Positions 4,489 through 23,192 of a stretch of 32,000 nucleotides of DNA are shown piece after piece (the first letter of the stretch is position 1; each line of letters starts with the position of its first letter). The position numbers and the translations under genes were made by a program. Under the pieces are notes generated by a model. The model saw only the letters and a list, made by a program, of their open reading frames with translations, searched no databases and had not been told where the DNA came from. The stretch is from an uncultured Pseudobdellovibrionaceae bacterium (GTDB lineage Bacteria > Bdellovibrionota > FAC87 > UBA2466), in contig CAYNEF010000009.1 of the NCBI GenBank assembly GCA_964396165.1, forward strand, positions 52,354 through 84,353. The letters are read 5' to 3'.

Positions 4489-6570
4489 ATGAGTGACGTC
4501 CTCGGTAACTCGATTACATACATTAAAGGAGTGGGCCCAAAGCTTGCTCAAGTGCTGCACAAAAAGGGAATCGACACGCTTGAGGATGCACTTTATTTTG
4601 TGCCGCGTCTTTATGAAGACAGAAGGCGCATTATCCCTATCGCTTCGCTTCAGCCCAATACTACAGCCACAATTTCTGGAAAAGTTGTCAGCGCAAAAGA
4701 AGTGGGATTTACGCGTTACCAGAAACGTTTTGAAGTAACGCTAGCTGATGCGACAGGACGTACCGTTCTTACCTGGTTTAGAGCGTATCCTAGTCTGAAA
4801 GAAGAGTTCAAAGTGGGAACTTCCTTTCTCGTGAATGGAGAAGTGAAGTTGTACCGCGGGCTTTCGCAGATCACCCATCCAGATTACGAAAAAATTGAAG
4901 AGTTTGTAGACGGAAAACCAAAGGCTTCGATTAATTTTGGGCGCATTGTTCCTGTTTATAGCGAGACCGAAGGCTTGCACCAGAAAACAATTCGCAAAAT
5001 CATGGGGGAAGTTGTCCGTACTTCCGTAAAAGAATTGCATGACGTCTTACCGGAAGAAATGCGTGCACGTCTGGAACTTCCCACACTCAGACAAAGTTTT
5101 GTGGATCTCCATTTTCCAAAAACATTGCCGGAAGAAGGGCTTCCGTTAGATGCCCTGAAAAGAATCATCTTTGAAGAGTTCTTCGTATTGCAACTTGGCT
5201 TAGGCTTAAGAAAAAGAGAAACGCAAAAGAAAACGGCGCCTGCGTTAGTAAATAAAAACGGTGCTTTGGAAAAGTATATTGCAGGCCTTCCTTTTTCTCT
5301 TACAGGAGATCAGAAAAAGGTAATCGAGCAGGTGAATCACGATATTGCTCGTCCGCTCATGATGACAAGACTTGTGCAAGGGGATGTGGGATCTGGAAAA
5401 ACAGCCGTGGCGTTTGCAGCTGTCTCTGTCACAGCAAGTTCTGGTTACCAAACTGCGATCATGGCACCCACGGAATTACTCGCCATTCAGCACGCAAAAA
5501 GTGCTGCGGCGTTATTGCCTGACTTAAAAGTTGCACTTCTTACGCATAGTACGGCTAAGGACAAAGAGCTTCACAAGACGATTCACTCAGGCGAAGTGAG
5601 TTTGGTGATTGGAACGCATGCTCTCTTTCAAGAAAACGTAAAGTTTAAAAAATTGGGTCTTGTGATTGTGGATGAACAGCACCGCTTTGGGGTAGAGCAA
5701 CGCGCGGATTTACTTAAAAAGAGCGAGAAAGAAAATGCGCATCTTTTAATGATGACGGCCACTCCGATACCGAGAACTCTTGCGCTGACACTCTATGGAG
5801 ATTTGGACTTAAGTATCATCCGGGAAAAACCGCAAAACCGCAAAAAAGTGAATACGACGATTTTAAAAGATCGGGACTTGCCACGCGTTTATCAAAAGAT
5901 CAACGAGACTGTCGCAAGGGGCGAACAGGTTTATATAATTTATCCTTTGATTGAGGCGTCTGAAAAATTGGAATTAAAATCAGCGACTGAGATGTACGAG
6001 AAGCTTCGAAAAGAAATATTTCCTACGCTGAAACTTGCTTTGTTGCACGGTAGGATGAAGGGACAGGAAAAAGAAGACATCTTAAAGGCATTTAAGAACC
6101 GCGAATTTGATATTTTAGTTTCTACTACGGTAATTGAAGTAGGGATCGATGTTCCCAATTCGACGTTAATGGTGATTGAACACCCTGAACGTCTGGGGTT
6201 ATCGCAGTTGCACCAGTTAAGAGGACGGGTGGGTCGTGGAGACAAGCAAAGTACGTGTTTACTTGTGGTGGATAAATTCGTTTTACCTCGTTTAAGAGTA
6301 ATGGAAACATCGGATGATGGCTTTGTGATCGCGGAAGAAGATTTAAAATTCCGTGGGCCAGGAGAGTTTTTGGGTACAAGACAAAGCGGTCTTCCTGGTT
6401 TCAGGGTAGGGCATATCTTAAGGGATGCATCCTTATTGGAACTAGCGCGAAGTGAAGCGGAAGCAATTCTTTTGAAAGATCCCACACTGGATTTAAAAGA
6501 AAATTCCGGCATTCGTAAAATGGTAGAAACCCGCTGGAAACAAAAAATTGAGAGACTTAGAGGAGGGTAA
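4489..6570 (+). CDS. recG: ATP-dependent DNA helicase RecG
   Basis: ORF 4450..6570; the ATG at 4489 gives MSDVLGNSITYIKGVGPKLAQVL. Motifs include RLVQGDVGSGKTAVAF, VIVDEQHRFGVEQR, MTATPIPRTLALTLYGDLD, HPERLGLSQLHQLRGRVGRG and RGPGEFLGTRQSGLPGFR. Confidence 0.96.
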   Translation: MSDVLGNSITYIKGVGPKLAQVLHKKGIDTLEDALYFVPRLYEDRRRIIPIASLQPNTTATISGKVVSAKEVGFTRYQKRFEVTLADATGRTVLTWFRAYPSLKEEFKVGTSFLVNGEVKLYRGLSQITHPDYEKIEEFVDGKPKASINFGRIVPVYSETEGLHQKTIRKIMGEVVRTSVKELHDVLPEEMRARLELPTLRQSFVDLHFPKTLPEEGLPLDALKRIIFEEFFVLQLGLGLRKRETQKKTAPALVNKNGALEKYIAGLPFSLTGDQKKVIEQVNHDIARPLMMTRLVQGDVGSGKTAVAFAAVSVTASSGYQTAIMAPTELLAIQHAKSAAALLPDLKVALLTHSTAKDKELHKTIHSGEVSLVIGTHALFQENVKFKKLGLVIVDEQHRFGVEQRADLLKKSEKENAHLLMMTATPIPRTLALTLYGDLDLSIIREKPQNRKKVNTTILKDRDLPRVYQKINETVARGEQVYIIYPLIEASEKLELKSATEMYEKLRKEIFPTLKLALLHGRMKGQEKEDILKAFKNREFDILVSTTVIEVGIDVPNSTLMVIEHPERLGLSQLHQLRGRVGRGDKQSTCLLVVDKFVLPRLRVMETSDDGFVIAEEDLKFRGPGEFLGTRQSGLPGFRVGHILRDASLLELARSEAEAILLKDPTLDLKENSGIRKMVETRWKQKIERLRGG

Positions 6571-6657
6571 TTAATTAGCATATTGTGGAAGAGGGGGTAA
6601 GCGCTCCAACCCCGAAGTCGCGTTACCCCCTCTTCCACAATATGCTAATTAATTACC
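6566..6657. repeat. Perfect 35-bp inverted repeat with 22-nt loop (long hairpin 'A')
   Basis: Left arm 6566-6600 is GGTAATTAATTAGCATATTGTGGAAGAGGGGGTAA. Loop 6601-6622 is GCGCTCCAACCCCGAAGTCGCG. Right arm 6623-6657 is the exact reverse complement. It overlaps the recG stop codon and has no following T-tract. Confidence 0.98.
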
Positions 6658-10987: not shown

Positions 10988-11007
10988 TTTAGTAATCGTT
11001 TAATAAG

Positions 11008-11039
11008 AAGGCGATCTGGGAAACCAGATCGCCTTTTTT
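11008..11039 (+). terminator. Rho-independent terminator of the porin-like gene
   Basis: AAGGCGATCTGG-GAAA-CCAGATCGCCTT followed by Ts: a 12-bp perfect stem with a GNRA tetraloop, about 20 bp after the stop. Confidence 0.95.
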
Positions 11040-11194: not shown

Positions 11195-11268
11195 ACGGGT
11201 GGCACATGCATTTCTAGTGATGGCGCGCCAAGAGCGACAGCACTAGAAATGCGTGTGACAGGACCCGT
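11195..11268 (+). ncRNA. Structured element 1, family 1 (RNA or DNA level unknown)
   Basis: ACGGGT | GG | CACATGCATTTCTAGTG | ATGGCGCGCCAAGAGCGACAG | CACTAGAAATGCGTGTG | ACAGG | ACCCGT. It has a 6-bp outer stem, an asymmetric GG/ACAGG internal loop, a 17-bp inner stem (one G.U) and a 21-nt loop. Confidence 0.6.
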
Positions 11269-11384
11269 GTTTCTCGCTCATACACTAATTACGCGCAGCA
11301 GTATAACGCGATACTCCATTGTGAAAAAACAATCATTTTTTATTCTAGTAAATATGCCGATAAGCCTTAGAGGTAATACGGCCC

Positions 11385-13325: not shown

Positions 13326-13359
13326 AAATAATTTTTAAGGATGAGATTTTAAGATGAAC

Positions 13360-13433
13360 ACGGGTCCTGTCACCTGCGAATGGGATGCTGTCGCTCTTGG
13401 CGCGCCATCACCCCATCCACAGGCGCCACCCGT
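13360..13433 (-). ncRNA. Structured element 2, family 1, inverted relative to element 1
   Basis: The reverse complement reads ACGGGT | GG | CGCCTGTGGATGGGGTG | ATGGCGCGCCAAGAGCGACAG | CATCCCATTCGCAGGTG | ACAGG | ACCCGT. It has the same architecture and length (74 nt) as element 1, and all 17 inner pairs form (4 G.U). Confidence 0.6.
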
Positions 13434-13545
13434 TCCCCGTTTTTTTCAATCCATAGTTCTAACGGAAAAAAAACAGTTCTATAAAGTCAGCGGAATGTAG
13501 CAGAGTGGTTCTATTAAACTGATTTATAAAATTTGTAAGTGAGAT

Positions 13546-13723
13546 CCTTTCAGGAAGAGGAGTGTGGGTGGCGCCTTCGTTAAAACCAGTGGCCCCGGGT
13601 AGTGATAAGCAAACTAGCAATGAAAACGAAACTTGCAGAAAGATCTCACAGCGAAGATCCAGTCCAAGGGGAGCATCTGGTTACCACGCAGGTGACAGGA
13701 CCCGCACTCCTCTTCCTGAAAGG
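13546..13723 (+). ncRNA. Structured element 3, enlarged relative of elements 1 and 2
   Basis: Outer arms are CCTTTCAGGAAGAGGAGTGTGGGT (13546-13569) and ACCCGCACTCCTCTTCCTGAAAGG (13700-13723): 24 bp, 23 Watson-Crick plus 1 G.U. The same GG (13570-13571)/ACAGG (13695-13699) internal loop follows, then a mostly paired inner stem (13572-13589 with 13677-13694, 14 of 18 paired). Confidence 0.55.
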
Positions 13724-14014
13724 TTTGCAATAATCAATACCCTATACAATTTTTTTCTCACACAAGTACTCTACGCAATGAGCAATCAAGTACTTAAAAT
13801 ATTCCCAAGCACACCTGGCATTTTTTTCCCGCACGAGAGGGAAATTCTTGCCGATCTTTCTGTCAATACATTGACAAGATTTAGGAACAATCATACAATT
13901 AAAGAGTAATATCCTTCTGTAAAAAATTAATTCCATAAAAAAAGTAGAATAGAAAAAAGCCACAAAGAGTAAGTTATTCCTTACTGTATTGTGAGTTTGT
14001 GTTTAAGGAGCCGA

Positions 14015-23101: not shown

Positions 23102-23192
23102 AATTAAAAGGTGGGGATTCCAGGCGGAGTAGTTAATGCGACTGGGGTTCGGAGCACTTAACTACTCCGCCTGGAATCTCCGCCTTTTAATT
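23102..23192 (+). repeat. Near-perfect 35-bp inverted repeat with 21-nt loop (long hairpin 'B')
   Basis: Left arm 23102-23136 is AATTAAAAGGTGGGGATTCCAGGCGGAGTAGTTAA. Loop 23137-23157 is TGCGACTGGGGTTCGGAGCAC. Right arm 23158-23192 is TTAACTACTCCGCCTGGAATCTCCGCCTTTTAATT. There are 33 Watson-Crick and 2 G.U pairs on the + strand. Confidence 0.97.

Follow-up and report, generated by a model that had tools for sequence, protein, structure and literature searches.

An enlarged copy of a widespread junction hairpin between an HD-GYP gene and a sigma-54 activator gene in a Pseudobdellovibrionaceae bacterium

The 32,000-nucleotide stretch of DNA analysed here (positions 52,354 to 84,353 of contig CAYNEF010000009.1, from an uncultured Pseudobdellovibrionaceae bacterium; hereafter the window) carries carB, greA, recG, genes for a dehydrogenase, a transporter, a porin and a GAF/HD-GYP protein, two sigma-54 activator genes, and genes for Mla and flagellar proteins; no transposase, recombinase or reverse transcriptase was found among the proteins encoded in these 32 kb. 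Three hairpin-forming elements lie around the HD-GYP gene. Element 1 (11195-11268, plus strand, 74 nt) is upstream of it, and element 2 (13360-13433, minus strand, 74 nt) lies 34 nt past its stop codon and is antisense to it. Element 3 (13546-13723, plus strand, 178 bases), the subject of this study, stands head-to-head with element 2 across an A+T-rich spacer of 111 nt (13435-13545) that is part of a block missing in an 83%-identical relative. An earlier note, made from the letters of the window, had described element 3 as a third, enlarged member of the family formed by the other two, with a constant internal-loop junction and a swappable distal part.

Element 3 and its relatives in the window

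The two outer arms of element 3, CCTTTCAGGAAGAGGAGTGTGGGT (13546-13569) and ACCCGCACTCCTCTTCCTGAAAGG (13700-13723), pair along their 24 positions, the sole deviation being a T opposite a G (one mismatch in the reverse-strand match). The resulting basal stem of 24 bp compares with 6-16 bp in other copies, and its junction end, the final GGGT of the 5' arm and the initial ACCC of the 3' arm, is invariant in the family. Next comes an asymmetric 2 x 5 internal loop, with GG (13570-13571) on its short side and ACAGG (13695-13699) on its long side, both unpaired in the fold, and then an inner stem in which CGCCTTCG (13572-13579) pairs with CGCAGGTG (13687-13694) at seven of eight positions, with one U x C mismatch; the equivalent positions covary across the family. 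In the distal interior of 107 nt (13580-13686), an A+T-rich core of about 65 nt is enclosed by one more short helix, CCAG..GCCCC / GGGG..CTGG, which is likewise present in the minimum-energy fold. The 191-nt stretch holding element 3 folds at -84.1 kcal/mol, against -53.3 +/- 4.2 for shuffled sequences (z = -7.25; none of 200 shuffles equalled it). The outer stem with its one G.U, the GG/ACAGG loop and the inner and further helices that the earlier note had described are thus borne out by complementarity and by the predicted fold, which keeps the shared internal loop.

Element 3 also shares sequence with its neighbours, as had been claimed. An 18-nt block is identical between elements 2 and 3, and the two have their first inner-stem pairs in common (GGCGCCT... 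and ...CGCAGGTG, the latter being the 3' arm of the inner stem), so that they are close relatives. The 13-mer GGTGACAGGACCC occurs three times in the window with up to two mismatches, where 0.18 occurrences are expected and none of 100 shuffles reached three. Elements 1 and 2 have their ends and a 26-nt apical sequence in common, and their 17-bp stems differ almost everywhere and pair perfectly in each. Element 1 folds with z = -7.47, and element 2 reaches -47.5 kcal/mol, compared with -29.5 on the other strand.

The part of element 3 that makes it large behaves differently from the junction. On neither strand is its interior (13587-13677) more stable than shuffles (z = +0.17 and +0.73); it has no similarity to anything in the 1.7 Mb of fetched sequence and is absent from the ortholog in a close relative (L122), which is only 51 nt long. 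The larger distal domain proposed for element 3 therefore does not stand, and because the interior is unstructured, unmatched elsewhere and missing from that ortholog, we infer that the enlargement is secondary growth of one copy and not an added functional domain. The suggestion that large and small copies might be related as autonomous and minimal elements is likewise excluded, because an interior of about 100 nt is too short to encode an enzyme and the window holds no transposase, recombinase or reverse transcriptase. A coding role was also considered and rejected: the 115-residue open reading frame at 13562-13909 has no Pfam match and crosses the conserved promoter of the next gene. The position of element 3 is atypical as well. 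Paired with element 2, it faces outward; 220 nt separate it from the HD-GYP stop codon, and the predicted promoter of a sigma-54 activator gene lies about 150 nt downstream of it. This promoter, at 13871-13899, is a near-consensus sigma-70-type sequence (TTGACA-17-TACAAT), and the block that contains it is conserved in L122 and partly in a second relative, L123.

A hairpin junction shared across phyla

Outside the window, a scan of one genome per species with the pattern GGGTGGC-N40-70-GTGACAGGACCC gave at least 120 matches; chance by itself could produce of the order of a hundred with such a pattern. Nearly every match, however, folds alike: GGGU/ACCC forms pairs, GG/ACAGG stays unpaired, and a long stem follows. 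The matches listed span about ten phyla, as judged from the labels of metagenome-assembled genomes, and include Solirubrobacterales, Acidimicrobiia, Acidobacteriota, Myxococcales and other 'Deltaproteobacteria', Planctomycetales, Legionellaceae and other Gammaproteobacteria, Methylomirabilota, Dormibacteria, Melainabacteria and more. A metagenome scan with a slightly different pattern returned, among the matches listed, contigs of 34-75% G+C. The conservation of the junction beyond this locus, which the earlier note had proposed to look for by descriptor search, thus extends across phyla. A single match among 2.9 million viral contigs led us to reject a phage origin.

In other genomes the GGGUGGC / GACAGGACCC junction recurs unchanged in hundreds of copies, on unrelated stems and apical modules, which agrees with the idea of a constant junction and an exchangeable distal part. 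The family is accordingly defined by structure: a basal helix that ends in GGGU/ACCC, a loop of GG opposite ACAGG closed by a C-G pair, then a pair that is mostly G.U, G-C or A-U, a stem whose sequence is free, and an exchangeable apical part. It is real, structurally constrained and very widespread. When 100 non-redundant foreign copies were aligned, with the two halves of each joined by a linker, 89.5% of the cells were paired as against 67.6% with partners shuffled, and double-sided changes numbered 374 as against 130; the covariation score was 0.537 compared with 0.154 for shuffles (none of 500 reached it), slid controls giving about 0.1. The pair next to the junction is G.U in 38, G-C in 27 and A-U in 20 of the 100 copies, and the variable stems contain 68 G.T and 44 A.C oppositions. 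About 20 nucleotides are invariant across phyla. The loop GG is so in 100 of 100 aligned foreign copies, its bases being fixed by the scan patterns; the foreign copies were all selected on an exact junction, so that conservation is overstated, and junction variability is underestimated because both scans required an exact match there.

A covariance model built from the foreign copies only recovers elements 1 and 2 (E = 1.9e-4 and 1.3e-5, respectively). Element 3 gave no match to it at E <= 10; the model linker is 4 nt long and the junction halves of element 3 are 119 nt apart. Element 3 nevertheless carries GGGTGGC (13566-13572) and GACAGGACCC (13694-13703) exactly, paired in the minimum-energy fold, and its halves, set against the alignment columns, agree at 21 of 21 invariant positions, with 16 of the model's 17 pairs formed. 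Its standing as an enlarged member of the family was in this way confirmed. Searching 820 kb of flanking DNA with the model yielded about a dozen more copies, roughly one per 70 kb, in which the junction variants were GCGACAGG (common), ACGGG (L070; the sole variant of the loop) and GACAGGCCCC, with no others.

The apical parts fall into a few recurrent modules that cross taxa, for example CGCGCAG-(hairpin)-CGAGCAC (loci such as L030, L043, L080, L110 and L117), and GAGGAAGCUUUAGCUACCGGAAGG recurs in Solirubrobacterales (e.g. L003 and L010). Some modules contain GCGAAGC, which forms a very stable mini-hairpin in single-stranded DNA. Solirubrobacterales elements are longer: their basal stem is flanked by a conserved C(T/C)CCTC on the 5' side and by CC(R)AG on the 3' side (e.g. 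L053, L119, L074 and L100), and a possible outer GGCG/CGCC helix beyond these motifs would imply an extra internal loop. The window itself contains a second type of hairpin, at 6566-6657 and 23102-23192, whose 35-bp stems are 100% and 94% paired and of unrelated sequence. The loops of this type are related and 21-22 nt long (GCGCTCCAACCCCGAAGTCGCG and the reverse complement of TGCGACTGGGGTTCGGAGCAC), and they resemble the apical module CGCGCAG...GAGCAC of many foreign junction hairpins. The copy at 6566-6657 is an insertion of about 120 nt relative to L123, in which recG and the dehydrogenase gene overlap, and it carries its own GAGGAG ribosome-binding site.

Placement and turnover of copies and exchange of their interiors

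Most copies lie just past a stop codon and antisense to the gene that ends there. Gene calls were crude (longest open reading frames, with a third-position-GC filter in high-GC contigs). Writing E for the element, > for a flanking gene on its strand and < for one on the opposite strand, the 142 intergenic elements comprise 63 cases of <E<, 34 of >E>, 32 of >E< and 13 of <E>, and the 35 of them in low-GC contigs comprise 24, 4, 5 and 2, respectively. The 3' end of the element is a median of 26 nt from the stop codon of the convergent gene, and 63 of 95 such distances are 40 nt or less; the commonest layout is a gene, its stop codon, and then, mostly 1-30 nt further on, an element antisense to the gene. 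An absence of orientation bias that had appeared with 56 elements was overturned by this larger set. Adjoining inverted copies within 1.5 kb of one another are head-to-head, with their 5' ends facing, in at least 10 cases, and tail-to-tail in one, an excess that arises because the 3' end of the element faces the gene end. Such pairs, whose members are often of different subtypes, occur at 13360-13703 of the window and in L012, L040, L057, L062, L074, L083, L103, L190 and L212. The flanks are mixed across the family; a U run (UUUUU) in front of the hairpin and an A run (AAAAA) behind it are found in many copies.

The genes beside the copies are housekeeping genes, recA-recX-alaS and ribD among them. 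In a Legionella-like locus two copies flank recX inside recA-recX-alaS, and the reading frames found between paired elements are recX, ribD or sequences without a Pfam match. All-against-all clustering of the open reading frames of 120 loci found no protein family enriched beside the elements, the clusters consisting only of ABC transporters, short-chain dehydrogenases, glycosyltransferases, and rib and 2-oxoacid dehydrogenase genes. In one locus (L021, 2390-2477) a copy occupies the place of a variable linker found within a long reading frame in the related genomes L110 and L062; a long frame without a Pfam match runs through this element on its own strand, and the copy may be translated, as Rickettsia palindromic elements are.

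Copies are gained and lost between close relatives as discrete insertions. In L123 and L124, which are 83% identical to the window, elements 1-3 are absent: the HD-GYP stop codon abuts ACGCGATGAGC and is directly followed by ACGCGATGAGCAATCA, which corresponds to the window from 13774 onward, and a 150-nt block upstream of element 1 is missing as well. In L122, whose HD-GYP protein is 92% identical, a head-to-head pair lies at the same place as in the window with other stems and loops, and its spacer of about 113 nt has little sequence similarity to that of the window. The insertion was resolved to the nucleotide at one site only, from a filled locus (L231) and an empty one (L204). The insert there is about 75 nt long, ATACTTAC-[element]-GTAAAAT, and sits exactly between the stop codon (ATA TAG changed to ATA TAA) and the GGAGGA of the next gene. 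The extension of the basal stem belongs to the insert, which rules out at this site that the flanks were pre-existing target palindromes. The orthologous copy, in the corresponding place in L136, shows compensatory changes in its stem.

While copies come and go, their interiors are exchanged and the junction is kept. At a site next to ribD in Solirubrobacterales, four of four genomes have the element, with four different interiors. In six loci (L117, L002, L029, L063, L075 and L098) a full copy is followed, 15-40 nt downstream, by a copy truncated at the 5' end that retains the last 16-48 nt, GTGACAGGACCC among them, and solitary 5' halves were seen just upstream of a full copy in L026 and L086. 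A guide-like function of the variable stems was rejected, as the stems of elements 1-3 have no second match anywhere in the window.

Two further signals lie near element 1. A canonical intrinsic terminator (11005-11038, a 15-bp stem followed by a T run) stands past the porin gene and keeps its position in L123, and the block with element 1 has its insertion point immediately downstream of the terminator. The sequence GCCGATAA (TCCGATAA in L122), at 11357-11368, precedes the HD-GYP start codon by about 20 nt and is retained in the relatives L122 and L123. It looks like the -10 element of promoters for FliA (sigma-28), the class from which Bdellovibrio expresses attack-phase genes; the flagellar cluster of the window lies at about 21.9-31.8 kb.

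Possible origin and function of the hairpins

The explanation that we lean towards, with modest confidence, is that element 3 is a lineage-specific, enlarged copy of a dispersed intergenic hairpin repeat of a kind similar to the REPs (repetitive extragenic palindromes) and miniature inverted-repeat transposable elements (MITEs) of bacteria. REPs are 20-40 nt long, lineage-specific, and mobilised by the Y1 transposases called RAYTs. Like REPs, BIMEs and REPINs, the junction hairpins occur in tens of copies per genome as extragenic imperfect hairpins with a preference for gene 3' ends; they are often in inverted pairs, fold unequally on their two strands, are gained and lost between close relatives, and lack coding capacity, so that any mobilising enzyme would have to act in trans. 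In contrast to REPs, they are 60-180 nt long and keep about 20 identical nucleotides around an internal loop in about ten phyla. The sole feature common to the REP super-family is an unpaired GTAG or CGTC tag (PMC3733652), and neither tag appears in the flank logos of 129 copies of the junction hairpin. Bacterial MITEs such as Correia/NEMIS, ERIC, RUP and the Rickettsia palindromic elements resemble the junction hairpins in their length of 60-180 nt, in terminal inverted repeats that form a basal stem, in discrete intergenic or intercistronic insertion and, it is likely, in co-transcription with neighbouring genes. However, the interiors of MITEs are conserved and need not be palindromic, whereas those of the junction hairpins vary and are always self-complementary, the phylogenetic spread of the latter is far wider, and the one clean pair of filled and empty sites gave no target-site duplication. 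We know of no parent insertion sequence for the junction hairpins, and no autonomous insertion sequence with the same ends turned up in about 1.7 Mb of loci, although no search was aimed at one.

A further comparison is with the attC sites of integrons, which share with the junction hairpins a basal helix, an unpaired asymmetric spacer, a second helix and a terminal structure of variable length. Recognition would in both cases rest on structure more than on sequence, and in both the better-folding strand is antisense to the upstream gene, directly past its stop codon. The junction hairpins differ in that they lack the RYYYAAC / GTTRRRY core, having a GGGU/ACCC basal helix with variable extensions, in that no integrase, attI or cassette array was found in the window or the loci, in that their neighbours are housekeeping genes, and in that their orientations are mixed.

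If the REP- and MITE-like origin is correct, a trans-acting protein encoded elsewhere in the genome would recognise the junction and, with one strand folded, copy or move the element. The junction sequences common to the copies could provide homology arms for exchange between them, which would explain the swappable distal part. Selection would then filter the insertions, sparing stop codons and ribosome-binding sites, and would retain copies that are harmless or that help as 3'-end or intercistronic hairpins.

Several observations weigh against this origin. About 20 nucleotides are identical in many phyla, unlike in REPs and MITEs, which are regarded as specific to a lineage, each evolving in step with a transposase of its own; a functional RNA motif to which a conserved cellular factor binds would account for such identity no less well. 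The family could not be linked to any transposase, HUH enzyme, recombinase or reverse transcriptase, and no RAYT gene was found beside any copy within flanks of 8-14 kb. A target-site duplication was not seen between L231 and L204, the only clean filled and empty pair, and the insertions of elements 1-3 were not clean, having come with 35-150 nt of unrelated A+T-rich DNA. As predicted from the arrangement of the genes, the mRNAs of the neighbouring genes would mostly carry the complementary strand, and it is the GGGUGG strand that folds better (in 215 of 263 copies, by a mean of 4.55 kcal/mol, a difference that stems largely from the single junction-adjacent pair, G.U in 38% of copies). The gene calls behind the placement are crude in high-GC loci.

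The strand preference is also part of what favours an explanation that we consider unlikely, though it deserves to be taken seriously, namely that the hairpin is a structured RNA motif of wide distribution that works on the GGGUGG...ACAGGACCC strand, with the loop as a protein-binding or tertiary-contact module. Each copy would then be a small RNA or an RNA module, and element 3 a variant with an extra arm. The full covariation of the helices around the invariant nucleotides, the frequency of G.U as the junction-adjacent pair, the preservation of structure by compensatory changes in orthologous copies, and the recurrence of apical modules such as CGCGCAG...GAGCAC in unrelated taxa are all consistent with this possibility. 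Its difficulties begin with distribution, as the copies number tens per genome and their presence differs between close relatives. They have no conserved promoter or terminator in their flanks, and they are mostly antisense and 1-30 nt from the neighbour's stop codon, a placement from which a transcript of the complementary strand is to be expected. Moreover, the interior of element 3, where an extra arm would lie, is unstructured. The loop is reminiscent of a kink-turn in having five nucleotides (three plus two) opposite two, flanking helices and G-rich non-canonical positions. However, ACA-GG stands opposite GG, and G.G, invariant in the alignment, takes the place of the tandem sheared G.A that a kink-turn needs; the defining feature of a kink-turn is therefore lacking, and the loop, as read from its sequence, would not imply an L7Ae-type partner. 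Nor do the known RNAs provide a match. Rfam 15 returned no family at the gathering threshold in the window and only microRNA-precursor noise over its elements at E <= 10, and it gave nothing for the elements on 19 foreign loci, even at E = 10; in 18 foreign loci its only hits were an RNase P RNA and a c-di-AMP riboswitch, each at another place in the locus. A search for tRNA and transfer-messenger RNA found none. The motif was not described in the surveys of REPs and structured RNAs that we searched, and literature searches with sequence strings returned only primers.

It is a little less probable still that the hairpins exist as 3'-end or intercistronic structures of mRNA on the complementary strand, GGGUCCUGUC...GCCACCC, serving as terminators, exonuclease barriers or insulators, in which case element 2 would terminate or stabilise the HD-GYP transcript and element 3 would be a bystander partner. 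The placement right past stop codons agrees well with such a role, as do the antisense orientation to the preceding gene in 24 of 28 co-directional cases in low-GC contigs, the scarcity of copies between divergent genes, and the intact stop codon and ribosome-binding site left by the L231 insertion. Some Bdellovibrio-like copies have a U run on the complementary strand (CCACCCGUUCCCCGUUUUUUU in the window and CCACCCGUUUUUGCC in L122). However, most copies have no U tract on either strand, many having UUUUU before and AAAAA after the hairpin, and a terminator scan called none at elements 1-3. Across the family the stems contain 613 G-C and 257 C-G pairs, and the 5' arms are thus rich in G and the 3' arms in C. 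A G-rich 5' arm with a C-rich 3' arm is the opposite of the pattern usual in a few well-known intrinsic terminators. Neither a plain terminator nor a stabiliser would call for an asymmetric loop that is invariant across phyla, the complementary strand folds less stably than the other, and element 3 is not at a gene end but 220 nt from the stop codon and upstream of the promoter at 13871-13899. The REP- and MITE-like origin and a role at mRNA 3' ends describe origin and consequence, and both may hold. Finally, elements 2 and 3 could be taken for the inverted repeats of an invertible, phase-variable switch upstream of the sigma-54 activator gene, since a 28-nt inverted repeat, 86% matched, encloses 308 nt (13351-13378 and 13687-13714) with an A+T-rich spacer upstream of a regulator gene, but we consider this very improbable, as no invertase or tyrosine recombinase was found in the 32 kb, head-to-head pairs 38-1137 nt apart are general in the family, the repeat shared in L122 is only about 11 nt, and most copies are solitary.

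The same approximately 20 nucleotides recur in Actinomycetota, Acidobacteriota, several proteobacterial lineages, Planctomycetota and others, and all else varies with perfect compensation, which calls for a conserved or widely transferred partner that recognises the folded junction. We suggest only tentatively that the GGGUGGC / GACAGGACCC hairpin represents an uncatalogued cross-phylum class, being either a non-autonomous mobile hairpin of a new type, moved by an enzyme, widely transferred or universal, that reads the folded junction, or a widespread RNA module to which a conserved cellular protein binds. If this were true, the modular build and the precise insertion between stop codon and ribosome-binding site would be the mark of a definite molecular mechanism and not of drift, and the partner, once identified, would reveal a new mechanism of mobilisation or a new RNA-protein module. 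In many metagenome-assembled genomes the family supplies unannotated hairpins between genes, and possibly within them. Such hairpins can be mistaken for small-RNA genes, terminators or riboswitch-like domains, and the enlarged element 3 is an instance of this.

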